Shown here in pieces: positions 12,914-60,190 of a DNA stretch of 64,000 bases. Made by a program: the position numbers and the translations under genes. Below the pieces are notes generated by a model. It saw only the letters and a program-made list of their open reading frames with translations, ran no database searches and was not told the DNA's origin. The DNA comes from Patescibacteria group bacterium (lineage in GTDB: Bacteria > Patescibacteriota > Kazan-3B-28 > UBA10110). The DNA lies in assembly GCA_041659905.1 (NCBI GenBank), contig JBAZXK010000002.1, positions 128,593 to 192,592 on the forward strand, written 5' to 3'. The stretch's first letter is position 1. Every line of letters begins with the position of its first letter.

Positions 12914-14713
12914 TTAAGGGGTGCCTTTGGTGCGTGTAATTTCTTCTTCAATGGCTTCTTTTTTGCGTTTAGCGGCCTGATGCGCAATTTCCTTAGGATG
13001 TAGTGTGGTAGTTTTGAATTTAGCGGCAGCTTGTTTACTTTTATCAAGCTTTTGCATCAGCGCTTCAATTTCTTTATTTGCTTCGAGTATTCGATGAGTG
13101 TGGATGTCATTCCCCTCTCTTACTAAGGTGTCTTTTTTGTTTTGCAGTAAGTTAAGAGCCTGACTAATTGTCGATGATTCTTGTTTAGCCTCTCTGAGGG
13201 TGTCATCATATTCGCCCGCTTGGGTCAAAGCTTCATCCAGTGCAGCATTAGCAGCGTCTGTTTCTGTTTGTGCCTCAGTTATCAAAAGAGCATCTGGTGC
13301 GTTTTGTCCTCCTCTAACTTGCCGATACTCCAATCGTTCAAGCTTCTTTTGGGCAGCCTCTGCTTTACGCTTCGCCTTCCCGATGATAACAGCCTGTTCT
13401 CTCTTCTTTTTTTCTGCCTCAACTTGTTCGCCCCGAGCTCTTTCTAACTCCAAGCTTTTTTGGGAAATATTTTCGTCCAATTCCGCTATTTTTTGCGTGA
13501 TAGTTTTTAACTTGTCTCTTAAGTCTTCTCTCTCGCTTTGGGTAGTTCGCAAGTCATATTCCAAAGTGCTGATAGCTTCCCCCTGTTCTGCTAAAGCATC
13601 TTTGAGCTGTTCCAATTCAGTGCTTAATTTGGCTTCGGCTATGCTTTCGGGTTGTAATTTTTCTTCTAAGATGGCAATTTTCCGATCTAACTCAGCTTGT
13701 TTAATATTTTTTTCCTGTTCGGCTTGGCTGCGCTTTTTGGTCCTTTTAACTTCTATTTTTTCTTTGGCAAACTTTTCCGCAGCCTGGACTTGTTTGCTAA
13801 AAGCTTCCTCTCGAAGGTGAGTATCTTTTTGAGTTGATTGTTTAGCCAGTTCTGCTCGTAAGCGATTTTGTTCTTGCTGGTGTTGAAGATCCAACGCTGC
13901 TAAACTTAGCAGATCAGCCTGTTCGAAATCAGACCTGCTATCACCCATCCGATAGGCCGTTTGGTCTTTTCTAGGCCGATGCATTTGTTTAATCGCCAAA
14001 ACTATTTCAGTTTCCTGAACTTTTTGCTGAGCCTCTTTAATGGCGGTGCCATATTCTGTGACCAGTTGGGAACGATTTTTATTCCAGTCCGATGTGTATT
14101 TTTCATAGTCTTTTTGCTTATATTGCAAGAAGTGTTCTTGAGCGTCCAGACTCCACTTGATCGATTCTAAATCAGCCATCGCTTCGACTTGCTCGGCTTC
14201 AGTAAATTCTTCTCCGGGCTGGAGGACAATCCCTTCTAATAAAGAACACTGTTGTTTTAACTCTAAAACATTGGCTTCGGCTTCTCGTAAGTCTCTCTCG
14301 ATCATTCTTTCTTCGTCGCGGATTTTTCCTAATTCAGCATAAAGTTGACCTTCTAATTGACGCTTATTACGCTTGGCTTCAAATTGCAAATCTTTTTGGC
14401 GCCGAGTTTCTTTATTCCGGAGCCATGTTCCGATGGGATTGGTCCAAATGTTATTCAGCCGATGAGGGGGGCGATATTTTTTCTCAATACTGGGGTAACG
14501 CTCGAACACGTCTTCGGCTCGAGCAATTTGTTTAATGACATCTGTCTGTTCCTTTTCCTTAATTTCCCTCTCATATAACAGAGGTTCAGCATCTGAGGTA
14601 TCTTCAAATGATTTTCTTAGTCTAGAGGCTTTCTCTCTCGCACCTTGCCGGATTTCATCAAAATCATCCTCTGGGGATTCAGATGAAATAGGTTGTTCTC
14701 TTTGCTCTGCCAT
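12914..14713 (-). CDS. Large E/K-rich coiled-coil protein, function unknown
   Basis: 599 aa, long heptad-like charged stretches; the many plus-strand ORFs inside it (13181-14759) are shadow ORFs. Confidence 0.6.
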   Translation of the reverse strand: MAEQREQPISSESPEDDFDEIRQGAREKASRLRKSFEDTSDAEPLLYEREIKEKEQTDVIKQIARAEDVFERYPSIEKKYRPPHRLNNIWTNPIGTWLRNKETRRQKDLQFEAKRNKRQLEGQLYAELGKIRDEERMIERDLREAEANVLELKQQCSLLEGIVLQPGEEFTEAEQVEAMADLESIKWSLDAQEHFLQYKQKDYEKYTSDWNKNRSQLVTEYGTAIKEAQQKVQETEIVLAIKQMHRPRKDQTAYRMGDSRSDFEQADLLSLAALDLQHQQEQNRLRAELAKQSTQKDTHLREEAFSKQVQAAEKFAKEKIEVKRTKKRSQAEQEKNIKQAELDRKIAILEEKLQPESIAEAKLSTELEQLKDALAEQGEAISTLEYDLRTTQSEREDLRDKLKTITQKIAELDENISQKSLELERARGEQVEAEKKKREQAVIIGKAKRKAEAAQKKLERLEYRQVRGGQNAPDALLITEAQTETDAANAALDEALTQAGEYDDTLREAKQESSTISQALNLLQNKKDTLVREGNDIHTHRILEANKEIEALMQKLDKSKQAAAKFKTTTLHPKEIAHQAAKRKKEAIEEEITRTKGTP

Positions 14714-14850: not shown

Positions 14851-17064
14851 ATGGCAAAACCCCGAAAAAAGAAAAAACAGTACCGCTACCGTTCCTATCA
14901 GACCTCTAAATGGGTAGATGGACTGAATTTAGATTTGGAATTAGAGCCGCATATCTTACGCGAGATTGTGGCAGTATTGTTGATAGGGTTGGGAGTGTTT
15001 ACTTTACTGGCAATCTTAGGAGCAGCAGGCGGTGTCGGCAGTGTCTTCTTTACGGCTTTGCGGATAGGATTGGGTTGGACTAGTTTTATCTTGCCGGTAG
15101 TATTAGTCGGTGCTGGCCTAGCTTTGTTTTATCCAGTGAAATATAAATTTACCACTACAAATACTGTGGGCTTGATTATGTTAGTCGTGGCTCTGTCGGC
15201 TTTACTGCATTTGTTTGTTGTCCCAGAAAACAGTGTGGGCGTAGCCCAAAGTGGAGCCGGCGGGGGTTATATTGGACTCGGCATTGCCGCAGGGTTAATT
15301 AAACTGGTCGATTTCTGGGCAGCCTTGTTGATTGTCGGTATGGCACTAGCCATTGCTTTATTGTTTGTGTTTGGCCAACCTCTGCGCGAGCTTTATTATC
15401 GAGCCAAACTGAATGTGCCTGCTCTCCCCCATTCACCCAAATTGATTATTCATAATGCGGGAGCGAAGGGTGGCCGAGCGCAAAAAGAAGAAGATACCGA
15501 CACTAAAGAAAATCAGGAACAAATTAAAACAGATGAACCCGAATTAGAGGTAGCTAAGACCTTTGTGCGTAAGAAGGTATCCGAGCAAGAGCCAGATTTT
15601 GTGCCCCAACTCACTACTGCCGGCGATTTTAAGTTGCCCCCGCTCGATTTATTGAGCGACACGGTAACTAAAGTCGATAGCGGCAATATTCGCCAAAATG
15701 TCGGTATTATCCAAGAAGCTTTGGAAGATTTCGGTATTCAAGTGGAGATGTCAGAAGTAAATGTCGGCCCGACAGTCACGCAATACACCTTGAAACCGGC
15801 GGCGGGAGTTAAATTATCTAAGATCAGTAATTTATCTAATGATTTATCGCTCGCTTTGGCGGCCCATCCTATCAGAATTGAAGCACCTATTCCAGGGCGG
15901 TCGTTGGTCGGGATTGAAGTACCCAATAAGAAATCTTCGATGGTGCGCCTGCGCGAACTAATCGAATCTGATGCCTTCAAAGCGATCCGCTCCCCTTTGC
16001 GGATGCCCTTGGGACGCGATGTAGCGGGGACGCCGGTAGCCGCCGATTTAGTGCGGATGCCGCATTTACTGATTGCGGGAGCCACCGGTATGGGTAAAAG
16101 CGTTTTTCTTAATTCATTATTAGTAAGTTTGATTTATCAGAATTCTCCGGCGGATTTGAGATTGGTCCTGGTCGATCCGAAGCGGGTAGAGTTTACGGCC
16201 TACAACGATGTCCCGCACTTACTGGCGCCGGTGATTGTCGATCCCTACAAAACCATTAGTGCTTTAAAGTGGTTAGTGATGGAGATGGAGCGCCGCTATA
16301 AAGTTTTTGCCGATCATAAAGTGCGCTTTATCGAAGCGTTTAACCGGGAATATCCGGATGCCAAAATGCCTTACATTGTTTTAGCTATTGATGAGTTAGC
16401 TGATTTGATGGCAGTGTCGGCCCGCGAGGTCGAAGCTTACATTTGTCGTTTAGCGCAAATGTCTCGGGCAGTAGGCATCCACTTAGTCTTAGCCACCCAA
16501 AGACCTTCCGTGGATGTCATTACCGGGCTGATTAAAGCCAATTTCCCCTCCCGGCTAGCTTTTGCAGTTACCTCCGGCACCGATTCTCGCACTATTTTAG
16601 ATACGGTCGGAGCGGACAAATTGCTGGGTAATGGAGATATGCTCTTCCAACCTTCTGATGCCAGCAAGCCGCGCCGGATTCAAGGAGTGTTTGTAAGCGA
16701 TAAAGAGGTTAAAGCCGTGACCGATTTTGTGAAACAGCAAGACAATCCCCAATACATTAGCGAATTGATCGCTGAAACCAAAGAATCCAAGCAATCCGAG
16801 ATTGAATCCGAAGGCGATCCCTTATTAAATGAAGCTGTTGAATTGGTGGTGCGGACTGGCAAGGCCTCAGCCTCGTATTTGCAAAGAAGATTTCGGATTG
16901 GTTATGCGCGGGCGGCCCGCCTCCTAGATTTATTAGAAATGAAAGGAATTGTCGGTCCGGGCGAAGGGGCCAAACCGCGCGAGATTTTAATGTCGCGCAC
17001 CGAATTGGTGGGGCAAGCCGCCAGCCCGACTGAGGCGGAATATAAAGAGGGCGAAGACTATTAA
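14851..17064 (+). CDS. ftsK: DNA translocase FtsK/SpoIIIE
   Basis: N-terminal TM segments, linker, motor domain with Walker A GATGMGKS and C-terminal gamma (winged-helix) domain. Confidence 0.9.
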   Translation: MAKPRKKKKQYRYRSYQTSKWVDGLNLDLELEPHILREIVAVLLIGLGVFTLLAILGAAGGVGSVFFTALRIGLGWTSFILPVVLVGAGLALFYPVKYKFTTTNTVGLIMLVVALSALLHLFVVPENSVGVAQSGAGGGYIGLGIAAGLIKLVDFWAALLIVGMALAIALLFVFGQPLRELYYRAKLNVPALPHSPKLIIHNAGAKGGRAQKEEDTDTKENQEQIKTDEPELEVAKTFVRKKVSEQEPDFVPQLTTAGDFKLPPLDLLSDTVTKVDSGNIRQNVGIIQEALEDFGIQVEMSEVNVGPTVTQYTLKPAAGVKLSKISNLSNDLSLALAAHPIRIEAPIPGRSLVGIEVPNKKSSMVRLRELIESDAFKAIRSPLRMPLGRDVAGTPVAADLVRMPHLLIAGATGMGKSVFLNSLLVSLIYQNSPADLRLVLVDPKRVEFTAYNDVPHLLAPVIVDPYKTISALKWLVMEMERRYKVFADHKVRFIEAFNREYPDAKMPYIVLAIDELADLMAVSAREVEAYICRLAQMSRAVGIHLVLATQRPSVDVITGLIKANFPSRLAFAVTSGTDSRTILDTVGADKLLGNGDMLFQPSDASKPRRIQGVFVSDKEVKAVTDFVKQQDNPQYISELIAETKESKQSEIESEGDPLLNEAVELVVRTGKASASYLQRRFRIGYARAARLLDLLEMKGIVGPGEGAKPREILMSRTELVGQAASPTEAEYKEGEDY

Positions 17065-17161
17065 ATAATATGTCATCCTCGGGCTTGACCCGAGGATCCA
17101 GGCCTAGACTCGGCGAGGCTGGCAGGCCTGGATTCCCGATCGAGTCGGGAATGACAAAGAA
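17065..17161. repeat. GC-rich palindromic REP-like element; left arm of an inverted-repeat pair (partner 20297-20380)
   Basis: Nested hairpins gtcatcctcgggcttgacccgaggatgac and gattcccgatcgagtcgggaatc. The reverse complement of 20297-20407 is identical to 17038-17161 apart from a 24 nt indel. Confidence 0.8.
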
Positions 17162-17169
17162 TAAACAGT

Positions 17170-17664
17170 ATGGCTACAGAATCTTCTTTCGATATCGTGT
17201 CCGAAATTGATCAGCAAGAGCTCGCCAACGCTTTAGATCAAACCCGCCGTGAAATTGCCGGGCGCTATGATTTTAAAGATGCTCCTGTCGAGATTAAAGA
17301 GGAGAAAGATCAATTAGTCATTTTAGCGCCAACCGAGTTTAAATTTAATGCGGCGCTGGATATTATTAAATCAAAACTGATCCGGCGGCAACTGGATTTG
17401 CGGATTTTGGGAGAGAATAAGATCGAACCGGCCAGCGGCGGTGCCGTGCGCGTAACCATTCCCCTGGTCGCTGGCATATCGGCGGATCGGGCTAAGTTAA
17501 TCAATAAAATAATTCGAGATCAGTTGCCAAAAGTAAAGGCCACTATCCAAGGGGATACCATCAGGGTCAGTTCCAAAAGCCGCGACGACTTACAGGCAGT
17601 GATGGCTCTATTTAAAGACAAGCCGGAAGTTACTATCCCCCTCCAGTTTACTAATTATCGTTAA
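17170..17664 (+). CDS. yajQ: YajQ-family (UPF0234) nucleotide-binding protein
   Basis: 164 aa, MATESSFDIVSEIDQQELANALDQTRREIAGRYDFKD matches the YajQ N-terminus. Confidence 0.8.
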   Translation: MATESSFDIVSEIDQQELANALDQTRREIAGRYDFKDAPVEIKEEKDQLVILAPTEFKFNAALDIIKSKLIRRQLDLRILGENKIEPASGGAVRVTIPLVAGISADRAKLINKIIRDQLPKVKATIQGDTIRVSSKSRDDLQAVMALFKDKPEVTIPLQFTNYR

Positions 17665-17691
17665 ATAGTTTATTTAACTAATATAAAAGAT

Positions 17692-18693
17692 ATGAATCCC
17701 ACTAAAACTTTAACTAAATCTGTACCCACGGATACCCTATCTGATACGCTAAGCCAGATTGAGAAGAAATACGGCCAAGGCGCCGTCATGCGTTTGGGTG
17801 ATGCTAAGCATGCCGAAGTAGAAGCTGTCCCGACCGGGTCACTCACTTTGGATCTGGCTTTAGGCGTGGGTGGGATTCCCAAAGGTCGAGTGATTGAGAT
17901 CTTCGGGCCGGAATCATCCGGCAAAACCACTTTGGCTTTGCATATGATCGCCCAATTTCAAAAACGGGGCGAAACGGCGGCATTTGTGGATGCCGAACAT
18001 GCTCTGGATCCGGATTACGCTAAACGGATCGGCGTGGACACTCAAAATCTGCTGATTTCTCAGCCGGACAATGGCGAACAAGCCCTAGATATTGTCGAAG
18101 CCTTAGTGAAATCTAATTCGGTCGGTATTATTGTGATCGATTCGGTGGCGGCATTAGTCCCCCGGGCGGAAATTGAGGGCGATATGGGAGATTCCCATAT
18201 GGGACTGCAAGCCCGGTTAATGAGTCAAGCTCTCCGGAAAATTACAGCTTATGTGAGCAAGTCGCGGACGGCAGTCATTTTTATTAATCAGTTGCGCATG
18301 AAGATTGGAATTATGTTCGGTAACCCCGAAACTACCACCGGTGGCAATGCTTTAAAATATTATTCTTCGGTTAGATTGGATATTCGGCGGGTCGAGTCGA
18401 TTAAATCAGGCGAAGAAGCAGTTGGCAACCGCGTGCGGGTGAAAGTAGTTAAAAATAAAATCGCTGCTCCATTCCGCCAAGCCGAGTTTGATTTGATGTT
18501 TGCGCAAGGTATCTCCCGCGAGGGCGAACTGATCGATCTGGGCTTGAGCCGCGGCTTTGTTATTAAATCCGGCTCGTGGTACGAGTGGGAAGGATCCAAA
18601 ATCGGTCAAGGTAAGGAAGCGGCCAAAGAATTCCTAAAAACCGACAAAAAAGCCGCCGAGAAGCTCGAGAAGATGATCCGCTCACTCGCGTAA
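17692..18693 (+). CDS. recA: Recombinase RecA
   Basis: [20 protein letters not shown] Walker A, characteristic L1/L2 region, 333 aa. Confidence 0.95.
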
Positions 18694-18704
18694 ATTGCAA
18701 TAAT

Positions 18705-19661
18705 TTAGGCAATAGTAACCAGAGTGTTATTTGGGGCCCAGTCGTACAGCACTTTAGAAGCCTCAATACCCACGCGGACGCAACCGTGTGACATTGGTTT
18801 GCCTAAATGCATATAATCTTCGTACAGTTTACCATTGGTATATAAACGACCATCAACCACTTCCCCTTCGATACGTTTACCTTGTTTAACTTTCCAGTGC
18901 GGTAGGGCGTGCAAACCATAGCCGATAAACCCGTATTCCCTGTTATAGAGCGCCATCCAATTATCCATAAACAAACTGTACTTACTAGAATAGGCCGTAT
19001 CGATGTGGTTAAGAATTTTGAATTTTCCTTTCGGAGTGTTATAGCCAGATTTGCCGCTAGAAATGGGAGTGTCTAACATTACGACATTATTTTCAACAAC
19101 CCAGAGCCGTTGGTCGCTTAACCAAATATAAATCTGTTTGCCCATCGCATCTTGATAGCTAAGCTCATTGCCTACCTGGAGCAACCATTTAATAGTGGGG
19201 CCGGTAATTACAGTAGTACCTAAATGTAATTTGAAGGATTCTTGGTATAAGGCTTTGCGAGTGACGGTCTGAATCGGAATATTAAAAGTAATTGTGCCAC
19301 GCGGGCGAATACTGTCTTGGTCAACCGAGCTACCAGCTAAAATCCGATTTTGGTCGATCCAAACGGAAGTAGCAAAGGGGCTTTTATGGTCGGGAGTGCC
19401 ATCGAAATAAATACTGCTTAGATAAAGCTGGTACAGGGGCCAAGGTTCCGACCCGATATTTTTTAGCTTAAGCGTAAGAAACCCCGGCTGGTTGGGTTCT
19501 AGGATAGGGTCGGCGCTCTGTTCAACAATTTCATATTGATAAGAGGGCAACAGCTCTTGGGCGCGGGTAGTTTGGGCAAAGAAGATAAAGCCGCCGGCGA
19601 TTAAACAAGACGACATCACGACTACACCTATGGTTTGGAAGATTTTTATGTTTATTTTCAC
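18705..19661 (-). CDS. L,D-transpeptidase (YkuD domain) with N-terminal signal/anchor
   Basis: C-terminal SHGCVRV catalytic motif of L,D-transpeptidases; N-terminal hydrophobic segment. Confidence 0.75.
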   Translation of the reverse strand: MKINIKIFQTIGVVVMSSCLIAGGFIFFAQTTRAQELLPSYQYEIVEQSADPILEPNQPGFLTLKLKNIGSEPWPLYQLYLSSIYFDGTPDHKSPFATSVWIDQNRILAGSSVDQDSIRPRGTITFNIPIQTVTRKALYQESFKLHLGTTVITGPTIKWLLQVGNELSYQDAMGKQIYIWLSDQRLWVVENNVVMLDTPISSGKSGYNTPKGKFKILNHIDTAYSSKYSLFMDNWMALYNREYGFIGYGLHALPHWKVKQGKRIEGEVVDGRLYTNGKLYEDYMHLGKPMSHGCVRVGIEASKVLYDWAPNNTLVTIA

Positions 19662-20027
19662 CGATTCTTATGGTTTTAACTAAGATTTCATTATACCAAA
19701 AAAATCGCCTCTGGTCAAGATAATTCTTGACACATAGGAGTAGATATGATAGGTTATAATGATTTCGTGAAGCTAGGTGTACCTTGGAGACCATAATGAT
19801 AAAGAAGACCAGAAAGTCGGCCATCGCAAAGAAGCAGCTGAAAATCAAGAAGCAATACTGCGAAAGATCCTGCGATTGTGCGAGGGAGGATCAAGGCCAT
19901 TGTCCCCTTCAAAACAATCAACCTATGTCTAACTGCTCTTCGGCAGTGCCCGACGAGACTGTTGCGCAGAGAAAGCCGAGAAAGCGCAAAGTATCAGCGG
20001 CCTGACCAAGGCCTAACTAACCAAAGA

Positions 20028-20058
20028 AACCCCTCTGAATCAGAGGGGTTCTTCTATT
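20028..20058. terminator. Rho-independent terminator hairpin (bidirectional)
   Basis: aacccctctg-aat-cagaggggtt perfect 10 bp stem followed by a T-rich tract; sits between convergent units. Confidence 0.7.
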
Positions 20059-20073
20059 AAATGTTTGGCGATA

Positions 20074-20292
20074 TTAAAACAATAACGAGAGGGTGGTGGG
20101 AAGATCGGTGTAATTAATTACCACGGCGCTGGCGGCAAGTAATACTAGTAAAATTATCAAAACCCAAAACAGCCAATGCGCGCCATCTTCAATTTCATCA
20201 GGCAGAACAATAATATAATTGGTTTTTTTGGGAACCAATTTTTTTAGCTTCTGGACTTTCGATGATTTTTTGTCTGATTTAATTTCTGTCAT
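20074..20292 (-). CDS. Small hypothetical membrane protein
   Basis: 72 aa with one strong TM helix (HWLFWVLIILLVLLAASAVVINY). Confidence 0.4.
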   Translation of the reverse strand: MTEIKSDKKSSKVQKLKKLVPKKTNYIIVLPDEIEDGAHWLFWVLIILLVLLAASAVVINYTDLPTTLSLLF

Positions 20293-20296
20293 ATTG

Positions 20297-20380
20297 TTTC
20301 TTCTTTGTCATTCCCGACTCGATCGGGAATCCAGGCCTGGATCCTCGGGTCAAGCCCGAGGATGACATATTATTTAATAG
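20297..20380. repeat. Right arm of the inverted-repeat pair (inverted copy of 17065-17161); 20381-20407 additionally copies the last 27 nt of ftsK
   Basis: Reverse complement matches 17038-17161 except for the 24 nt indel. Confidence 0.8.
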
Positions 20381-20413
20381 TCTTCGCCCTCTTTATATTC
20401 TGTCTCAGTCAGG

Positions 20414-21127
20414 CTAGCGGCTTGTCTTGCCGAATTGAGCGGGCTTGCCTCGCTGCGAAGCAGCGGGTAAGATCATTATAACAAACTCGCCTTTAGGAAG
20501 TTTGCTGGCGAAGTAGTTAATTAGTTCGTTAGTCTCCCCTATTTTGACTTCTTCAAACTTTTTAGTGAGTTCGCGAAAAGCCAGAATCTTTCTTTGGCCT
20601 AAAAATTTTTCAATATCTCTCAAGGTGCGGCCTACCCGCATCGGTGATTCATAAATTAAAATGGGCAAATCCCAGCCGCTGATCTTTTTGAAGAGAGTTT
20701 CCCGGCCTTTCTTTTTCGGGAGGAATCCCAGGAAGATAAAATTATCAGCCGATTCCCCAGCGATGCTGAGGGCAGCGGTCAGGGCAGAAGGGCCAGGGAG
20801 AGCCATGACTTCAGCACCGGCAGCGCGAGCGGCCCCTACGAGCCTCCCGGCCGGGTCTTGGATACCGGGAGTACCCGCATCAGTGATCAAGGCAATGTTT
20901 TTGCCTTCCACTAGCTGCTCCACCAGGTAATCCAGTTTATTATCTCGGCTGTGTTGGTGATATGAAATCAGCGGAGTTCCAATATTATAGTGGTTTAGTA
21001 ATTTTTTACTAGTGCGCGTATCTTCGGCTGCGATCAAGTCAACTGTCCGCAAGGTTTCTAAAGCCCGCAGAGTAATATCTCCCAGGTTCCCGATCGGTGT
21101 GGCGACCACATAAATTTTTCCCATCAT
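20414..21127 (-). CDS. rsmI: 16S rRNA (cytidine1402-2'-O)-methyltransferase
   Basis: MMGKIYVVATPIGNLGDITLRALETLRTVDLIAAEDTRTSKKLL, tetrapyrrole-methylase fold typical of RsmI. Confidence 0.85.
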   Translation of the reverse strand: MMGKIYVVATPIGNLGDITLRALETLRTVDLIAAEDTRTSKKLLNHYNIGTPLISYHQHSRDNKLDYLVEQLVEGKNIALITDAGTPGIQDPAGRLVGAARAAGAEVMALPGPSALTAALSIAGESADNFIFLGFLPKKKGRETLFKKISGWDLPILIYESPMRVGRTLRDIEKFLGQRKILAFRELTKKFEEVKIGETNELINYFASKLPKGEFVIMILPAASQRGKPAQFGKTSR

Positions 21128-21246
21128 CTGTTAATTGAGTAAATAATTACGTATCCGTCATTCTGGGGAGCCCCTGGGGCGACTCCAGAATCGTACATAT
21201 TATTTATACGATCCTGGACGATGCCAGGATGACGGCCAAAAGAGTC

Positions 21247-22588: not shown

Positions 22589-22725
22589 AGGTCAGTATTT
22601 AGCGTTTAGCGTCTAGCATTTAAAATATAGTTCCTCCCCTCACGGAGGGGAGGTTAGGTGGGGAGTGATTAATCTTCTACTCCCACCTCCCCCTAACCCC
22701 TCCTCGGGCAGGAGGGGAATATTAT

Positions 22726-23406
22726 CTAGATTTTATAGTAGCGGACATTGATAATCCCGGCACCTAAGGGAGCGAGTTTAGCAAAGGCGGTATGATTCAA
22801 ATCCAGCGACATACCCGTCCAATCCTCCGGGCCAAAGTCGTTTACCACGACATCCACGGATTTGCCGGATTTGATGGCAATGACGTGCACCTTGGTGCCC
22901 CGGGGAAATTCTCGGCTAGCAGTATTCATGCCGTTGCCGAAGACATACCAACTGGCGTAGCCTTCCCGAACCGGTGATTTAGGAACTTTTAGGGCCTCTT
23001 CTTGTTTCTTAATATCAGCCGCAACCTTGTCTATAGTGGCTTGCATGTTAGCAGCCACAATAGAATTTCTGTCAGTCGGCTTAGTAGTGACGGTAACTAA
23101 AGTTGCGGCAGTCAGCCGACTCTCTGGCCGGGGGGTGACAGCGACGATCGGCTCTTGGATGTTGAGTTCGGCAATTAAATCCCCTACCTCAGTCGCCTTG
23201 GTAGTATAAATGTCAGTTAAACCATTAATCGAAACAGTCACGGCTTTGATAGTCTTGATAGTGGCATTTCCTAACTGGCCCAGACCGAAGATAAGAAAAA
23301 TCAATAGCCCTAAAGTTATAGCGGTGGCAAAAGATTTCTTTCTAGTTTCGGGGGCGAGATGAGGATAATTTAAATCCGTCAACCTGTGCCTAAAGAGTTT
23401 GCTCAC
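22726..23406 (-). CDS. RlpA-like double-psi beta-barrel (DPBB) lipoprotein
   Basis: N-terminal TM/signal; C-terminal EGYASWYVFGNGMNTASREFPRGTKVHV...NDFGPE resembles the RlpA/3D DPBB domain. Confidence 0.6.
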   Translation of the reverse strand: MSKLFRHRLTDLNYPHLAPETRKKSFATAITLGLLIFLIFGLGQLGNATIKTIKAVTVSINGLTDIYTTKATEVGDLIAELNIQEPIVAVTPRPESRLTAATLVTVTTKPTDRNSIVAANMQATIDKVAADIKKQEEALKVPKSPVREGYASWYVFGNGMNTASREFPRGTKVHVIAIKSGKSVDVVVNDFGPEDWTGMSLDLNHTAFAKLAPLGAGIINVRYYKI

Positions 23407-23429: not shown

Positions 23430-25574
23430 TTAGAGGGAGGCTGAGGTGGGAGCAACTATTTTTTTGATCGGAGCCAAATTGCGCGCCAATCGTTTGATAC
23501 CGAATTGTTGGAAGGCGGCGATTACTTCCAATTTATCTACGGTAATCACTTTACCGGGACCGAAATGCTTATGTTCGATCCAATCCCCAGGTTTAACCTT
23601 GAGGGCTGGGGAAACTTCTTCAATGGTAGTAGTGGTATGAGACATTTCGTTGCCGTCAACTTTTAACTCTTCTGGTATATCATCAATAAACCGAGATGGC
23701 AAACTGGGGGTAAAAGTGCCGAAGATCAGACGCTGGACCGTATAGATTAAATAAAGCTTTTTCTTGGCTCGGGTCATCCCGACATAACACAAGCGACGTT
23801 CTTCTTCTAATTCCTCTTCGTCTAGGATACTGCGGGAATGCGGAAACAGGTTTTCTTCCATTCCGGCAATAAACACATAATCAAATTCCAATCCTTTAGC
23901 CGAGTGCAAAGTCATTAAACTAACAGCGTTTTCGTCTGCATCATATCTATCAATATCTTGGATCAAACTGACTTCTTCCAAAAAGAGTGGTAAAGCGATT
24001 TTGATATCTAGAATATCATATTTTTCGATGACGCTCTTAAGTTCCCGGACGTTTTCAATGCGAGTTTCACCTTCAATAGTTTTATCATTAAGCCAAACCA
24101 AATAGCCAGTTTTTTCTAAGAGATAATCGAACAATTTAGAAAGCACTCGTTTACCCGACCTGGCTTCGGTAAATACTTGTCCCAGTTTTCGGAGTTCGGC
24201 TTGGGCTTTAGCTCCTACCGGCACATCTAACAGAATTTCGCTGGTCGGCTGATTGTGCACTGTGGCGTATTTGACTAGTTCTTCCCAGGTTTTCTCCCCT
24301 ACTCCCCGGGGCGGCAAATTGATGATTCGCTTTAAACTCAAATCATCCTGCGGGTTATTAATTACTTTCATAAACGCCAGCACATCTTTAATTTCTTTGC
24401 GATCGTAGAACCGAGTACCGCCGATGATCCGGTATGGGATGTTTTGTTGCAGAAAAGCTTCTTCTAAAGCGCGGGACTGGGCGTTGGTGCGATACAAAAT
24501 CACAAAATCATTAAAGTCGAGTTTAGGGTCAGCCGATTTGCGCTGGAGAATTTCTTGGATGATGTATTTTCCCTCCATCTCTTCGTTAAAGACTTGTTTG
24601 ATAGTGATCGGCTCGCCTTCGCCGTTTTTGGTCCAGAGTTCTTTTTCGCTCCGATTTTTGTTGGCGGAAATGACAGCTGCCGCGCTATTTAGGAGATTTT
24701 GGGTAGAACGGTAGTTTTCTTCCAGTTTAATGGTTTTGGCTTTTGGGTAATCTTTGTGGAAATTCAAGATATTGCGGTAATTCGCCCCCCGCCAACTGTA
24801 AATCGATTGCCAATCGTCGCCTACCACAAACAGATTCTTATGTTTTTCGGCCAACAACTTGGTTAATTGGTATTGGGCGGTGTTGGTATCTTGATACTCG
24901 TCCACCATAATATATTTAAATTTGGTTTGGTATTTCTTCAAAACATCCGGATTATTGCGGAATAAAACTACTGTTTGCATCAAGAGGTCGTCAAAATCCA
25001 AGCTGTTGTTGGCGAGGATAATTTCTTGGTAGCGGGGGTAAACTTTAGCCACTACTTTTTGAAAGTAGCCATACGCCATTTCGGGATATTCTTCGGCATT
25101 GATCAGTTCGCTTTTGGCGGAAGAGATGTAATTTAATACCGCGCCGGGGGCGAATTTCTGGGTGTCCACATTTAAGTCGTTCATGGCCTGTTTTACCGCT
25201 GTGGTTTGTTCGTCAGTGTCTAAAATAGTGAAATTTTGATTGCGGCCGATGTGTTGAATGTCGGCCCGCAAAATCCGCGAACAGAGCGAATGGAAGGTAC
25301 TGATATGAAAAGCTTTATCGGATTTTAACTTCAGCAGATGCATGATCCGTTGTTTCATCTCGCCGGCCGCCTTGTTGGTAAAGGTGACGGCCAAGATCTC
25401 GCTGGGGGTAGCTTTTTTGGTTTGCACCAAATAAGCCACCCGGGATGTGAGGGTTTTGGTTTTGCCGCTCCCGGCTCCCGCCAAGATCAGCACCGGCCCT
25501 TCCGTGGCCTGCACCGCTTTAATCTGCTCCGGGTTCAACTTGTCTAATAAATCTGTCATACAACCTTGTGTCAT
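23430..25574 (-). CDS. pcrA: ATP-dependent DNA helicase PcrA/UvrD
   Basis: Walker A ILAGAGSGKTKTLT, UvrD helicase motifs throughout, 714 aa. Confidence 0.9.
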   Translation of the reverse strand: MTQGCMTDLLDKLNPEQIKAVQATEGPVLILAGAGSGKTKTLTSRVAYLVQTKKATPSEILAVTFTNKAAGEMKQRIMHLLKLKSDKAFHISTFHSLCSRILRADIQHIGRNQNFTILDTDEQTTAVKQAMNDLNVDTQKFAPGAVLNYISSAKSELINAEEYPEMAYGYFQKVVAKVYPRYQEIILANNSLDFDDLLMQTVVLFRNNPDVLKKYQTKFKYIMVDEYQDTNTAQYQLTKLLAEKHKNLFVVGDDWQSIYSWRGANYRNILNFHKDYPKAKTIKLEENYRSTQNLLNSAAAVISANKNRSEKELWTKNGEGEPITIKQVFNEEMEGKYIIQEILQRKSADPKLDFNDFVILYRTNAQSRALEEAFLQQNIPYRIIGGTRFYDRKEIKDVLAFMKVINNPQDDLSLKRIINLPPRGVGEKTWEELVKYATVHNQPTSEILLDVPVGAKAQAELRKLGQVFTEARSGKRVLSKLFDYLLEKTGYLVWLNDKTIEGETRIENVRELKSVIEKYDILDIKIALPLFLEEVSLIQDIDRYDADENAVSLMTLHSAKGLEFDYVFIAGMEENLFPHSRSILDEEELEEERRLCYVGMTRAKKKLYLIYTVQRLIFGTFTPSLPSRFIDDIPEELKVDGNEMSHTTTTIEEVSPALKVKPGDWIEHKHFGPGKVITVDKLEVIAAFQQFGIKRLARNLAPIKKIVAPTSASL

Positions 25575-31165: not shown

Positions 31166-31909
31166 ATGTCTGGACACTCAAAATGGGCTACAATCAAACG
31201 GAAGAAAGGCGCGCTAGACCAGAAGCGCGGGGCTTTGTTTACCAAATTGGTGAAAATCGTGGAAGTGGCGGCCAGAGGCGGGGCGGACCCGGCGATGAAT
31301 TTTAAATTGAAATTGGCGGTGCAAAAAGCTAAATCGGCCAATGTCCCTCTGGCTACGATTGAGAAGTCCATCAAAAAAGGGAGCGGACAAGACAAAGAAG
31401 CGAGCCGTCTAGAAGAAGCAACTTACGAAGGATTAGCTCCCGGAAATGTGGCGGTAGTTATTCAAGCCCTAACTGACAATAAAAATCGGACTGTGGCGGA
31501 TTTGCGCAATATTTTTACTAAGGCTGGCGGGAATTTTGGCTCCCCGGTGTCTTGGCAGTTTGACCATCGCGGAGTGTTGGAAATCAGCAAATCAGGCAAT
31601 GTTGAGGAGCTCGAGTTAGCTGTGATTGATGCGGGGGCATTGGATTTTTCAGATGCGGGAGATGTGGTGGAGGTATATACCGAGCCGAAAGCATTGGACC
31701 AAGTGAAAAACAAGTTGGAGTCCGCCGGATTTAAAATAACTTCCAGTGCTTTGGGGCTGGTGCCGAAAAATAAAACTGTAATTACTGACTCAAATATGGC
31801 TCGCCGGGTGTTGAATTTTTTGGATGCCTTGGATGATTATGATGATGTAACGGAAGTGGCCAGCACTCTGGATGTTCCGGATGAGATTATGGCAAAACTC
31901 GAAGATTAA
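31166..31909 (+). CDS. yebC: YebC/PmpR-family transcriptional regulatory protein
   Basis: MSGHSKWATIKRKKGALDQKRGALFTKL... canonical YebC start; the listed ORF begins 60 nt upstream at a non-homologous Met. Confidence 0.85.
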   Translation: MSGHSKWATIKRKKGALDQKRGALFTKLVKIVEVAARGGADPAMNFKLKLAVQKAKSANVPLATIEKSIKKGSGQDKEASRLEEATYEGLAPGNVAVVIQALTDNKNRTVADLRNIFTKAGGNFGSPVSWQFDHRGVLEISKSGNVEELELAVIDAGALDFSDAGDVVEVYTEPKALDQVKNKLESAGFKITSSALGLVPKNKTVITDSNMARRVLNFLDALDDYDDVTEVASTLDVPDEIMAKLED

Positions 31910-31934
31910 TTCCCCTCCTGCCGGAGGAGGGGTT

Positions 31935-32018
31935 GGGGGAGGTGGGAGTATATTCCCCGAGCGGAGTCGAGCCTGCCTGCCGGTAGGCAGGGGGCTACCT
32001 TTGATTTTGTAAAATCAA
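31935..32018. repeat. 83-84 nt GC-rich palindromic repeat, copy 1 (second copy 57869-57951)
   Basis: ggggaggtgggagtatattccccgagcggagtcgagcctgcctgccggtaggcagggggctacctttgatttt gtaaaatcaat is identical in both copies apart from a 1 nt indel; it contains the palindromes gcctgcctgccggtaggcagg and ttgattttgtaaaatcaa. Confidence 0.85.
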
Positions 32019-32034
32019 TAAAACTTTTTTCTTA

Positions 32035-32282
32035 TTACCTTTCTAGAAAGGTAACACCAAAGTCCCGGGCAGTCGCCCTCGCTCTGCAGTAAATCATAAA
32101 ATCGCCTTCCTGCTCTCGCCCTAACAGACAACGGGCTACGCAACAGCGATTTTCTGTCTGCAGTACGCTCGGGCTCCAATGCCCGGTTGACGGAGAAAGA
32201 CAAAGAAATATAGTGATTTTGCTATTTGCTATCTGAATTTGCTCAATGGGGTTGAAAGACAAAGTCGTCCTCCTCCAATGGC
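32035..32282 (+). ncRNA. Candidate structured RNA / cis-regulatory element, copy 1 of 3 (unclassified family)
   Basis: Alignable with 35824-36000 and 57964-58185. It has a 5-prime hairpin (ttacctttc-taga-gaaaggtaa here; ttactttcc-cga-ggaaagtaa in the others, with compensatory CC/GG vs CT/AG changes), a conserved aaagtcYYSGGCAGTCG box, a covarying internal hairpin, and conserved ctcgRRctccaatgSCYgg plus cctcctccaaKGSc boxes. ORFs on either strand over it are not conserved between copies. Confidence 0.45.
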
Positions 32283-33279: not shown

Positions 33280-33870
33280 ATGGAAACAATGAACAAGATT
33301 ATTTTAGGATTGGATCCGGGGACGGCGACAACTGGGTTTGGGGTAGTTAAAGATACTAAAGGCCAAGTTGAATATGTGGATTGCGGGTGTATCATTACTA
33401 CACTCAAAAGTATATCCCCAGCCCGCAAAGCTACGCTTAGCGTTGCTGGCGAGCCTGCCCGCAATGCTCCCGTCACAACTTCGCAGATGTTGGCGGGTGC
33501 TGGCGGGCCTGCCGAACGACTGCTGACCATTCAGAAATCTCTGGAAATTTTAATTAAAAAATATCAGCCGGATATTTTAGCAGTAGAGAAATTGTTTTTT
33601 ACCAAGAATATTACTACCGCCATTTCAGTAGCAGAAGCCCGCGGGGTAATTTTGGTCACAGCCGCCAAACATAACTTGGAAATTGCGGAATATACTCCTT
33701 TGCAAGTGAAACAGACCCTGACCGGATATGGTAAAGCCGATAAGCAACAGATACAGCGGATGGTTAAATCTATCCTGAAGCTTCAAAGCATCCCGAAGCC
33801 GGATGATGCCGCCGACGCCTTAGCGATAGCGATTTGTGCGGTGCACCACACAGTTAAAGTTGGATGTTAG
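33280..33870 (+). CDS. ruvC: Crossover junction endodeoxyribonuclease RuvC (with ~32 aa in-frame insertion)
   Basis: ILGLDPGTATTGFGVV N-terminus, C-terminal DDAADALAIAICA motif; a GC-rich A/G/P-rich insertion at nt ~33408-33505 relative to canonical RuvC. Confidence 0.85.
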   Translation: METMNKIILGLDPGTATTGFGVVKDTKGQVEYVDCGCIITTLKSISPARKATLSVAGEPARNAPVTTSQMLAGAGGPAERLLTIQKSLEILIKKYQPDILAVEKLFFTKNITTAISVAEARGVILVTAAKHNLEIAEYTPLQVKQTLTGYGKADKQQIQRMVKSILKLQSIPKPDDAADALAIAICAVHHTVKVGC

Positions 33871-33879
33871 AATAAAGAT

Positions 33880-34437
33880 ATGATCGCATCGGTTTCGGGA
33901 AACATTATTCATAAGGGTATTGATCATCTGGTGGTGGAAGCCGGCGGGTTGGGTTATAAGGTGTTTGTGACGAGTGATGTGATAGTCAAAACCCTGTTGG
34001 ATCAACCGGTGAGATTATTTACGCAGTTAATTGTGCGGGAAGACAGCCAGTCACTGTATGGGTTTATGACCCTCCAGGAATTAGAATTGTTTAATTTATT
34101 GATTAGCGTGTCGGGGGTAGGCCCTAAAATTGCTTTGGCGGTGCTGTCGGCCGGGAAAATTGAAGAGCTGCGGTCGGCGATCGGGTGCGGCGACAGCGCT
34201 ATTTTTATGGCGGTGAGCGGAATCGGCAAAAGGACAGCTGAACGCATTATTCTGGAATTAAAATCCAAAGTTGGCGAGATCGGCACGAGCGAATTAAACG
34301 GCAGTTCGCAAGAAGTTATCACTGCCCTGTCAGGATTAGGCTATAATATGTATGAAATTCGCGAAGTGATCAGAAAAATTTCTCCGGAATCTCCCATCGA
34401 AGAAAAAGTCAAAGAAGCATTAAAATTATTAGGGTAG
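33880..34437 (+). CDS. ruvA: Holliday junction DNA helicase RuvA
   Basis: MIASVSGNIIHKGIDHLVVEAGGLGYKVFV OB-fold start, two HhH motifs (VSGVGPKIALAVL; VSGIGKRTAERII). Confidence 0.9.
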   Translation: MIASVSGNIIHKGIDHLVVEAGGLGYKVFVTSDVIVKTLLDQPVRLFTQLIVREDSQSLYGFMTLQELELFNLLISVSGVGPKIALAVLSAGKIEELRSAIGCGDSAIFMAVSGIGKRTAERIILELKSKVGEIGTSELNGSSQEVITALSGLGYNMYEIREVIRKISPESPIEEKVKEALKLLG

Positions 34438-35786: not shown

Positions 35787-35823
35787 TTTTGATACTCTGA
35801 CAGAGTATTGCAGAATTTTTCTT

Positions 35824-36000
35824 GTTACTTTCCCGAGGAAAGTAACCAAAGTCTTCGGGCAGTCGTCCTCACTCGGTATTTAACCAAAAATCTACCTTTC
35901 CGCTCTCGTCGGTGTAACCGACTTTGCAGCGGTAATTTTTGGAATACCTATCGCTCGGACTCCAATGCCCGGATGGGAACAAAAGCCCTCCTCCAATGCC
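35824..36000 (+). ncRNA. Candidate structured RNA / cis-regulatory element, copy 2 of 3
   Basis: ~80% identical to copy 3 over ~175 nt with paired substitutions in helices (gtcggt-gtaa-accgac vs gccggt-atat-accggc; ggta...tacc stems conserved). Loop 1 (aaccaaaaatc) is complementary to loop 2 (atttttgg). Confidence 0.45.
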
Positions 36001-38449: not shown

Positions 38450-38571
38450 AACCATATATAGAGACTTTTTGGCGGATAGCCGTTGATATAATTGACAAAG
38501 CATTCCTTGCTTTGTCATCCTGGCTTCGTCCCTGCCTACCGGCAAGGCAGGCAGGATCGTATAATTAATGT

Positions 38572-48573: not shown

Positions 48574-48981
48574 ATGCGCGTCTTAAGTATAGATTTAGGT
48601 AGAAAAAGAATTGGGGTGGCCTTGGGCGATACGGAAAATTATGTCGTTGTGGGTTTGCCGACACTGACCAACAATAAAGATTTATTGGATAAGCTAAAAG
48701 AAATTATCGTGCGAGAAAATATTCAAAAGTTAATCATCGGCTGGCCAAAAACTATGAGCGGACAAAACGGCGAACAAACTAATTACACGCAGCAATGGGG
48801 CGATCGGATCAAACGTATTTTGCATATCGATGTGGAATATATTGATGAAAGATTGAGCAGTAAAATGGCGCGCGATAGCTTGGAGAGTCTCGGCGGCAGT
48901 TTGAAGAAAGAGGATATTGACCAAGCCGCGGCTGTGTTGATTTTGCAGGGTTACCTCGACCGGCCCAAAAACTCGATTTGA
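48574..48981 (+). CDS. ruvX: Putative pre-16S rRNA nuclease / Holliday-junction resolvase-like YqgF (RuvX)
   Basis: MRVLSIDLGRKRIGVALGD RNase H-like start typical of YqgF. Confidence 0.8.
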   Translation: MRVLSIDLGRKRIGVALGDTENYVVVGLPTLTNNKDLLDKLKEIIVRENIQKLIIGWPKTMSGQNGEQTNYTQQWGDRIKRILHIDVEYIDERLSSKMARDSLESLGGSLKKEDIDQAAAVLILQGYLDRPKNSI

Positions 48982-50651: not shown

Positions 50652-50883
50652 AACAATATACTCAAAATGGTGGATGAGCTCTGGCGCCGTGGACAGAGCT
50701 TTTTTATTTTTTCCAATCGTCATTCCGGTAAGTCCGCTTTGCGGACGCATCCAGAATCGTATAATAATAAATCTATACGATCCTGGACGAAGCCAGCCTG
50801 CCTGCCGGTAGGCAGGGACGACAATATAAGGAAAACATTGTCGCTTAAGGTATATTGATATTAGTTGAAAAATTGATTATTGT

Positions 50884-57788: not shown

Positions 57789-57868
57789 ATTATTCCCCTC
57801 CTGCTCCTCGAGTCTGAGCCTCGGAGTCGAAGACCGGAGCCTGCCTGCCGGTAGGCAGGGAGGGGTGA

Positions 57869-57951
57869 GGGGAGGTGGGAGTATATTCCCCGAGCGGAGT
57901 CGAGCCTGCCTGCCGGTAGGCAGGGGGCTACCTTTGATTTGTAAAATCAAT
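57869..57951. repeat. 83 nt GC-rich palindromic repeat, copy 2 (identical to 31935-32018); preceded by a partial extra copy of its core at 57820-57865
   Basis: Same sequence as copy 1, including the gcctgcctgccggtaggcagg and ttgatttgtaaaatcaa palindromes. Confidence 0.85.
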
Positions 57952-57963
57952 CAACCATTTTCT

Positions 57964-58185
57964 GTTACTTTCCCGAGGAAAGTAACCAAAGTCTTCTCGC
58001 AGTCGCTCTGGCTTGGTATTTAGCTAAAAATTACCTGGCTGTTCTCGCCGGTATATACCGGCTCCACGCACTGGTAATTTTTGGAATACCTAACACTCGA
58101 GCTCCAATGGCTGGAATGTAAAATCAAGACATCCCTCCTCCAAGGGCCGGTTAGATGAAAAGACGCTCAAACTCCAATGGCCACG
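57964..58185 (+). ncRNA. Candidate structured RNA / cis-regulatory element, copy 3 of 3
   Basis: 5-prime hairpin gttactttcc-cga-ggaaagtaac identical to copy 2; conserved boxes as in copies 1-2; fused downstream of the 83 nt repeat exactly as in copy 1. Confidence 0.45.
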
Positions 58186-59581: not shown

Positions 59582-60190
59582 TCACTCCCCAGAATGACGG
59601 CTGAAAATGGCTTTACTGATGACGCTGTAATTAAATCCTTTGCGAGCAAGATAGAATTTGAGTTGGTCGGGGGTTTTTGAGTGGCTGAATTTGGCGACGA
59701 GTTTGGTAGCGGTGGCTAATTCTTGATCGGCTAATTCGGGTTGGGCGAGAGTTTCTCGGATAATATTTTCGGCTATCCCCTTTTGGATAAGCTCGGCTTT
59801 TAAGTGGGTAATGCTTCTATTTCGTGTTTGTGATCTTTCTTTTACCCAGTGTTCGGCAAACTTTTGATCATCCAGCCAGCCCTCTTTTTTTAAGCGGGCA
59901 ATCGTTTCGACAATGGTTTCGGGCTCAAATTTGGTTTTGAGTTTTTGGCGGATTTCAAAAATGCTTTGCGGCCGATAAGACAATAATTTCAAAACTTTGT
60001 CGTAGGCCTTGCCATTGATATCCTGTTTTTTGAGCTCTTCACAAAGTTTTGTGGAAATATCTGCTCCCACTTTCAGGTTGTGGGAAATCCAGGTGAATTT
60101 ATCGATCCCGGTCAGGAATTTATCATCCACAAACACATTTACCCGATTAGAGTTATTGGCTTGGCTCACGATTTTGGTGATTGTAGGCAT
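59582..60190 (-). CDS. recX: Regulatory protein RecX
   Basis: 202 aa three-helical-repeat protein; C-terminal half matches RecX family repeats. Confidence 0.65.
   Translation of the reverse strand: MPTITKIVSQANNSNRVNVFVDDKFLTGIDKFTWISHNLKVGADISTKLCEELKKQDINGKAYDKVLKLLSYRPQSIFEIRQKLKTKFEPETIVETIARLKKEGWLDDQKFAEHWVKERSQTRNRSITHLKAELIQKGIAENIIRETLAQPELADQELATATKLVAKFSHSKTPDQLKFYLARKGFNYSVISKAIFSRHSGE

Follow-up and report, generated by a model that had tools for sequence, protein, structure and literature searches.

A perfect inverted repeat around recA in a Patescibacteria group bacterium, probably a lineage-specific copy of the ftsK-yajQ junction

Introduction

Short palindromic repeats have been described in Enterobacteria and Pseudomonas as REP (repetitive extragenic palindromic), BIME (bacterial interspersed mosaic element) and REPIN (REP doublet forming a hairpin) elements (Bertels & Rainey 2011, PMC3116915; PMC3337134). 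SPDIR (short-patch double illegitimate recombination) is described as yielding ectopic patches of ~3-100 bp which are bounded by microhomology and need no recombinase (bioRxiv 10.1101/2023.11.22.568220). In this study we analysed an inverted repeat in a 64 kb stretch of DNA from a Patescibacteria group bacterium (64,000 nt of contig JBAZXK010000002.1, assembly GCA_041659905.1), hereafter called the window. Its two arms, one at the end of ftsK and one between rsmI and a gene for a small membrane-type protein (small72), bracket a 3.1 kb block with yajQ, recA and an L,D-transpeptidase gene (ldt). The case combines known kinds, namely a REP/REPIN-like element and a microhomology-mediated ectopic duplication. 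We consider it probable that a tract of ~135-160 nt (17014-17172) was copied in inverted orientation into the rsmI/small72 junction 3.1 kb away, that the copying was bounded by microhomology, that the core of the arms was homogenised later and that the hairpins are passive punctuation.

Results

The left arm at 17038-17161 and the reverse complement of 20301-20400 match at 100 of 100 aligned nt, as found by a repeat finder and by pairwise and coordinate-tracked alignment. The sole interruption is a stretch of 24 nt present in the left arm only, and the uninterrupted perfect blocks are 62 and 38 nt long. The full similarity extends over 17014-17172 and 20290-20424 with six mismatches, all outside the 100-nt core. 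Outward it reaches 17014/20424 with mismatches at 17022, 17027, 17035 and 17037, at each of which the left arm has C or G and the right arm T or A. On the inner side two positions, 17162 and 17168, differ before the similarity reaches the ATG codons (17170-17172 and 20290-20292), and on the left it possibly extends to 17181 (ACAGAA). Homology beyond 17014 was considered and rejected, as the weak similarity there coincides with tandem RG(K/E)P-encoding units native to the rsmI tail. By BLAST the match has E = 6e-36, well outside what chance would give, and 30-mers of the arms (n = 2) had no match in 100 shuffles. No further copy of the arms was found in the window with up to 3 mismatches allowed, and BLAST against 160 fetched loci (1.77 Mb) gave none beyond the orthologous site of one relative, L006. 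The arms and their parts are as follows.

17014..17172, plus strand: left arm, with the ftsK end, hairpin element, leader and yajQ ATG, by alignment with the right arm
17072..17155, no strand: composite palindrome, REPIN-like, with closing stem GTCAT/ATGAC, from RNA fold and motif matches
17075-17097: hairpin 1, CCTCGGG/CTTGA/CCCGAGG
17098-17131: central hairpin, between hairpins 1 and 2
17132-17152: hairpin 2, TTCCCGA/TCGAG/TCGGGAA
17099..17129, left arm only: region of the 24-nt indel, of ambiguous placement (17099-17122 or 17106-17129)
20290..20424, minus strand: right arm of 135 nt, the derived inverted copy, by arm alignment; not in any relative

The inverted repeat around recA is confirmed as real. 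The window comes from a metagenome-assembled genome, which would make a chimeric join or a collapsed repeat conceivable, but the chance of such an artefact is negligible because an independent assembly agrees and unitigs of another run break at both arms. An independent megahit k141 contig of 170 kb from ENA is identical over 20.5 kb save for one base at 7175, and the diagnostic sites of each arm span 101-125 nt in it, so that each arm is phased by one 141-mer. Moreover, a Logan unitig from SRR6484324 corresponds exactly to 17132-20330 of the window and a second one ends at 20371, both breaking at 30-nt k-1-mers shared by the arms. These k=31 unitigs stop at the arms and do not phase the orientation of the bracketed segment.

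Read toward the bracketed segment, the arms consist of the last 16 codons of ftsK with its TAA (…QAASPTEAEYKEGEDY*), a linker of 7 nt, the composite palindrome, a leader of 14 nt and an ATG. The C-terminal tail of FtsK (…EYKEGEDY*) forms the outer part of the left arm. The right arm carries the hairpin element at 20307-20366 and includes the rsmI stop codon (20414-20416), which is followed by a decayed ftsK tail, the element, the leader and the small72 ATG. The last rsmI codons, T-S-R, together with the TAG stop (20414-20425) are ftsK-tail sequence in another frame, and small72 now takes its leader and its start codon from the duplicated yajQ leader and ATG. A sequence-only reading of this DNA had seen an identity of ~109 nt between 17038-17161 and 20297-20407; the repeat is perfect as it supposed, but covers 100 nt with the right arm at 20301-20400. 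It had rightly placed the last 27 nt of ftsK in the perfect block, and the copied portion amounts in fact to 51 nt, the final 16 codons together with the stop. It had also put the ftsK tail just downstream of rsmI, where an inverted copy does lie, though the stop and last three codons of rsmI fall within the arm. Likewise, its 24-nt indel is specific to the left arm and the only difference in the core, but not a true palindrome as it had been called; its effect is to make the central hairpin longer. On either side of the indel stands CAGGCCT (17099-17105 and 17123-17129), a direct repeat of 7 nt which by its sequence is a signature of slippage.

The composite palindrome is made up of two GTCATYC…GRATC modules in mutually inverted order. 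As in a REPIN doublet, GTCATCCTCGGG…CCCGAGGATC and GATTCCCGA…TCGGGAATGAC are mutually inverted and closed by GTCAT/ATGAC. The predicted fold is a three-way junction in both arms and on either strand (-50.6 / -32.4 kcal/mol; z -6.2 / -4.2). The sequence after the hairpins is AAAGAAUAAACAG and holds no U-tract, and the terminator scan detected no intrinsic terminator in the arms. Besides, the promoter scan gave no convincing sigma-70-like promoter inside them. Rfam searches returned nothing except tRNAs over the window at the gathering threshold and no match over 16950-17250 at E<=1.

The genes bracketed by and flanking the arms are listed here.

14851..17064, plus strand: ftsK, 737 aa, Pfam FtsK_4TM/FtsK_alpha/FtsK_SpoIIIE/FtsK_gamma
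17170..17664, plus strand: yajQ, DUF520/YajQ family, 164 aa, Pfam PF04461
17692..18693, plus strand: recA, 333 aa, Pfam RecA_N/RecA_C
18705..19661, minus strand: ldt, L,D-transpeptidase with YkuD domain, 318 aa, Pfam PF03734
19784..20005, plus strand: orf73, small Cys-rich open reading frame (ORF), 73 aa, tblastn, no Pfam match
20074..20292, minus strand: small72, conserved membrane-type protein, 72 aa, tblastn synteny, no Pfam match
20414..21127, minus strand: rsmI, 16S rRNA C1402 2'-O-methyltransferase, 237 aa, Pfam TP_methylase, NCBI name of the identical protein P0001

Relatives were found with a YajQ bait in GTDB species genomes and with an RsmI bait in JGI (Joint Genome Institute) metagenomes and a protein collection. 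The only close relatives that the YajQ bait retrieved from the GTDB species genomes were metagenome-assembled genomes of Candidatus Saccharibacteria / Patescibacteria, and the window was accordingly assigned to Saccharibacteria (TM7, Patescibacteria). Every relative spanning the region keeps the same order and orientation, ftsK>yajQ>recA><ldt<small72<rsmI<(DUF1003)<ksgA<rlpA. The synteny set comprised at least eight loci (L006, L008, L009, L073-L075, L155 and L159), none of which carries the repeat pair. Because order and orientation are kept in relatives without the pair, the 3.1 kb block is ancestral and lies in its ancestral orientation, and by synteny yajQ, recA, ldt, orf73 and small72 are all ancestral residents which have not moved. 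At the syntenic place small72 was recovered by tblastn with 38-67% identity in L006, L008, L009 and L073-75, and it is called as a gene in L155. For orf73, tblastn against the ORF of 153 aa which L155 has at this place gave 50% over 26 aa (E 1e-5).

The second arm stands at a junction that is tight elsewhere. From the rsmI stop to the small72 ATG there are 2 nt in L006 and L155, and the two genes overlap in L009, L073 and L159; no element of any kind was found at this junction in the relatives. The 121-nt spacer of the window is new because the junction is this short or overlapping in relatives. The …AQFGKTSR tail of RsmI was in none of the RsmI C-termini of 15 relatives. Conversely, the orthologues of FtsK end in …EFKEGQDY* (L006), …EFKEGEDF* (L005 and L155), …EYKEGEDF* (L159) and …VEGEDY* (L007), and the ftsK-yajQ junction of L006 holds the same hairpin element (GTCATCCTCGGGCTTGACCCGGGGATC…CTGGATTCCCGATCAGGTCGGGAATGACAAAGAAGAAA) with a different central spacer. 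The hairpins of the window and L006 are 97% and 88% identical, against 73-81% for the adjacent coding DNA. We take the left arm as the donor and the right arm as derived because FtsK natively ends in KEGEDY/F and the element of L006 lies at ftsK-yajQ. From these comparisons the hairpin element of the ftsK-yajQ spacer is older than the species, and the right arm is an inverted duplicate specific to this lineage. The RsmI search of JGI metagenomes gave relatives at <=73% identity only and no sister strain, whether one that has the right arm or one that lacks it, and a search of 5.8 billion proteins gave nothing between 84% and 100% identity. The duplication is not datable more finely because neither search returned a close RsmI relative.

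The sequence-only reading had proposed a duplication of gene-end sequence together with REP-like hairpins, and this agrees with what the relatives show: tail and element are native at ftsK-yajQ, and rsmI and small72 normally have no spacer. Its list of the bracketed genes (yajQ, recA, ldt and a small membrane-protein gene) was correct except for a supposedly gene-free gap, which holds the 73-aa Cys-rich ORF. It would have been refuted by relatives that share a single orientation and carry the repeat pair without the ftsK tail; all do share one orientation, but they lack the pair.

The junctions of the copy can be located by comparison with L155. In the rsmI tail of the window the native sequence ends at …ACAAG|CCGC, which matches GGGGCAAG|CCGCC of ftsK, a microhomology of 4 nt. 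At the inner junction ATG(GC) is common to yajQ and the ancestral small72 (ATGGCT in L155; ancestral start ATGGCN). Both crossovers therefore show microhomology, and the resident ~15-20 nt are gone.

Divergence is uneven along the arms, with 0/100 mismatches in the core vs 6/35 in the flanks (Fisher p = 2e-4). The same holds within the functionless non-coding copy of the ftsK tail (0/34 vs 4/24, p = 0.025). The four differences on the outer side are GC>AT changes in the right arm, and one of them made the rsmI TAG; they look as expected of neutral decay. The abrupt change at 17037/17038 is most readily explained if a gene-conversion tract ended there and, on that reading, homologous recombination would have taken place between the arms at least once.

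The hairpin element has company in the window. The motif GTCATYCY-N8-38-RGRATC occurs 11 times, where 0.24 would be expected, and every occurrence lies between ORFs of >=110 aa.

GTCATYCY…RGRATC hairpins: 17072, 17131, 20307, 20340, 21157, 21210, 25570, 38514, 43484, 50719 and 58228
21157..21233: in the DUF1003-rsmI spacer, a second inverted doublet of this hairpin family, differing in sequence; orthologous module in L073

The ends of the family are conserved, the stems vary between copies and the orientation to transcription is mixed. The exact arm element is present in two copies in the window, and the 11 modules have only the GTCATYCY/RGRATC ends in common. Given the second doublet, the element of the arms therefore belongs to a dispersed family. 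Of the 160 fetched loci, most of which belong to other phyla, only those of Saccharibacteria relatives had the motif with a palindromic interior, sometimes at orthologous spacers. Judged by its motif, the hairpins are a clade-specific REP/REPIN-like family. The literature searched yielded no description of palindromic intergenic repeats in Saccharibacteria.

Other repeats share these spacers. The ftsK-yajQ spacer is an insertion hot spot across L005-L009, L073, L155 and L159. In L007 it is 2 nt long and in L008 about 4 nt. The window and L006 have the GTCAT doublet there, L005, L073 and L159 have a 190-nt element, L009 has a structured G-rich insert, and in L155 a gene for a DUF559 (Vsr-like endonuclease) protein lies between GGGGAGG hairpins. 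The dispersed element of ~190 nt (GTTACTTTCCCGAGGAAAGTAACCAAAGTCTTC… to …CTCCAATGC) is found in the window at 35817-35996 and 57958-58143 and partially at 31990-32083, and in relatives at L005:1318-1433, at L073:14266-14369 and in the ftsK-yajQ spacer of L159. It is 79-83% conserved across copies and species, replaces the GTCAT doublet in the ftsK-yajQ spacer of three relatives and had no Rfam match; it could be a miniature inverted-repeat transposable element or an unidentified small RNA. In addition, a perfect palindrome module, GCCTGCCTGCCGGTAGGCAGG, occurs at least five times (31969-31992, 38526-38555, 50795-50818, 57837-57860 and 57902-57925) and often adjoins GTCAT hairpins or the G-rich motifs GGGGAGGTGGGAG / CCTCCTCGGGCAGGAGGGG (22678-22727 and 31903-31950). 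The intergenic repeats of this genome look modular.

RsmI C-terminal tails are hypervariable in the clade (proteins P0002-P0016; rsmI 3' end at 20414-20470) and frequently carry an RG(K/E)P… motif in tandem, as in QRGKPAIMRGKPNKK. This motif suggests that the junction into which the duplication came is prone to slippage in its DNA (GGCAAGCC repeats).

Pfam labels were precomputed for window positions 7170-27664, and 20 further small or unannotated ORFs were scanned. Up to 10 kb to the left and right of the arms no recombinase or transposase is among the called genes, several of these ORFs being without any Pfam family. A RAYT (REP-associated tyrosine transposase; Y1_Tnp, PF01797) had no match among the Pfam-labelled genes of 7170-27664 or the 20 further ORFs. 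Genes of recombination are numerous in the window, namely recA, ruvC, ruvA, ruvX, recX and uvrD (33280-34437, 48574-48981, 59582-60190 and 23430-25574); RuvA, RuvC, RuvX and RecX, among others, were recognised in the scan of the 20 ORFs. With so many homologous-recombination genes, the lineage therefore has the machinery for arm exchange.

Within the bracketed block, the 19662-20073 spacer has a near-consensus minus-strand promoter, TTGACC-17-TATAAT (19718-19690), facing ldt, and the terminator scan gave a bidirectional terminator-like hairpin at 20028-20050, after orf73. This ORF is weakly related to ORFs of 141-153 aa at the same place in relatives. Directly upstream of ftsK and divergent from it, 12914-14713 (minus strand) encodes a highly charged, coiled-coil-like protein of 599 aa, for which there was no Pfam match and which was absent from the tblastn comparison with L005-L009.

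Discussion

The preferred explanation would start with one event in this lineage only, in which the tract from 51 nt before the ftsK end to the yajQ ATG was copied in inverted orientation and replaced a tight rsmI-small72 junction of ~15-20 nt. The outer crossover would lie at CAAG (17014-17017) and the inner one at or just past the ATG. A microhomology-bounded ectopic copy event could account for this, with a template switch between fork arms or an SPDIR-like integration of an ectopic single strand as candidate mechanisms. Later, the arm cores would have been homogenised at least once by gene conversion, with GC>AT transitions eroding the right outer flank in the meantime. In function, the hairpin element would most likely serve, in the manner of REP elements, as passive RNA or DNA punctuation which would protect the 3' end or partially terminate after ftsK and rsmI and uncouple downstream translation. 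The inverted-repeat pair would then be a by-product and not a programmed switch.

Several points weigh against this explanation. The way of formation is read from the junction sequences only, and these are imperfect: the outer join is not clean, since the window is without ~4 nt which L155 has, and the inner junction is placed no better than 17172-17181. Core identity could partly come from strong purifying selection on the hairpins and not from gene conversion, and the 24-nt indel sits within the supposedly homogenised tract. The hairpins have no U-tract and hence are not a canonical intrinsic terminator. As the evidence consists of assemblies, minor inverted subpopulations may exist.

Instead of one copying event, two independent insertions of a mobile REPIN-like element might have occurred, followed by conversion which started from the shared element and carried the ftsK tail and yajQ leader rightward. 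The membership of the element in a dispersed intergenic hairpin family, the repeat-insertion hot spot in the ftsK-yajQ spacer of relatives and the uneven divergence along the arms fit such a course. We nevertheless regard it as unlikely. No third copy of the element exists in the window and only the orthologous site of L006 matched in the 1.77 Mb of fetched loci, the rsmI-small72 junction of relatives has no element, and illegitimate joins would still be needed at both outer ends, so that this alternative collapses into the preferred explanation.

Two further readings are quite improbable. In one, the hairpins are part of an undescribed clade-specific REP/REPIN-type system of Saccharibacteria with a dedicated binding protein or transposase; in the other, the pair around recA, made when one such element was copied, is a RecA-dependent flip-flop. 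Under the first assumption the near-constant hairpin sequence at orthologous sites across species would point to such a dedicated protein.

Even less credit is due to the idea that the arms are recombination sites of a functional invertible switch which flips the recA block and exchanges the upstream operons of yajQ-recA and small72-ldt. The perfect blocks of 62 and 38 nt are long enough for RecA-dependent exchange, the gene-conversion signature would imply that the arms interact, and RecA, RuvA, RuvC, RuvX and RecX are encoded in the window. Moreover, the ORFs would stay intact in both orientations with a stop, hairpin, leader and ATG in each arm. Against a switch, no site-specific recombinase is found among the genes called within 10 kb (no invertase or tyrosine recombinase Pfam family within ±10 kb, where several genes have no Pfam family at all), one orientation is common to two independent assemblies, and relatives without the pair keep this orientation. 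What the arms could support is an occasional RecA-dependent inversion, a possibility which the sequence-only reading had raised and to which the assemblies and relatives, all of one orientation, lend no support. Recombination between them would keep every ORF intact and exchange only the operon, that of ftsK or rsmI, upstream of yajQ-recA and of small72-ldt; an inversion would be viable because each arm supplies stop, hairpin, leader and ATG.

An alternative also raised by the sequence-only reading, in which the 3.1 kb segment was inserted or transposed and has the arms as its terminal inverted repeats, has practically nothing for it beyond the geometry of inverted repeats around a gene block, as content, order and orientation (yajQ-recA-ldt-small72 between ftsK and rsmI) are kept in at least eight loci without the right arm, no transposase was found among the genes scanned and the supposed terminal repeat includes the native ftsK end; a transposon with such repeats is ruled out by synteny and co-orientation in these relatives.

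The locus leaves the current understanding of repeats or rearrangements unchanged and is a fairly ordinary small rearrangement scar. It is, however, a clean and datable example of a streamlined genome of the candidate phyla radiation gaining an intergenic spacer. A cassette of gene end, hairpin, leader and start codon would have been copied by illegitimate recombination into a formerly overlapping junction, giving rsmI a new C-terminus and stop and the small membrane-protein gene a borrowed translation start. Besides, a REP-like hairpin family is documented for Saccharibacteria, and recA is now bracketed by a perfect inverted repeat of 100 nt on which an inversion could potentially act.

Among described systems, the Hin/Gin/Fim switches and shufflons also have inverted repeats around a few kb. 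In contrast to these, no invertase or integrase gene was found here within 10 kb, the arms copy a gene junction and not short recombinase sites, and one orientation is seen. The staggered-break model, reportedly put forward by Ranz and colleagues in 2007 for Drosophila, is said to explain inverted duplications flanking inversion breakpoints. Similarly, an inverted duplicate of one breakpoint region stands at both ends of our segment; however, the segment is in ancestral orientation, and the model would need an inversion and then a re-inversion.

REP elements near stop codons of E. coli reportedly modulate translation and mRNA decay, as is said to have been found by Liang, Rudd and Deutscher in 2015 and by Newbury and colleagues in 1987. 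The stable hairpin 7-10 nt past the ftsK stop is of this kind and likewise without a U-tract, and the setting is similar in that the window has genes for PNPase and RNase J. Unlike those elements, the right-arm hairpin lies 48 nt past the rsmI stop, and the Saccharibacteria case is known from sequence alone.

As in SPDIR, a short resident tract appears replaced by ectopic intragenomic sequence with (extended) microhomologies on both sides and no recombinase. The patch of 135-160 nt exceeds the ~3-100 bp of SPDIR, a size which also counts against the preferred explanation, and the event is deduced here from comparative sequence.

The hairpins themselves come closest to REP/BIME/REPIN elements: they are short intergenic palindromes, form inverted doublets around a spacer which fold into a larger hairpin, lie just past stop codons, belong to a dispersed family and persist vertically at orthologous sites. 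Differences remain. Among the ORFs scanned, which are part of those in the window, there was no RAYT gene. REPINs occur in tens to hundreds of near-identical copies, whereas the exact element has two copies in 64 kb, one of them a segmental duplicate, and the conserved ends are GTCATYC/GRATC with stems differing between copies. Finally, REPIN transposition carries no flanking coding sequence, whereas the copy described here includes 51 nt of ftsK and the yajQ ATG.

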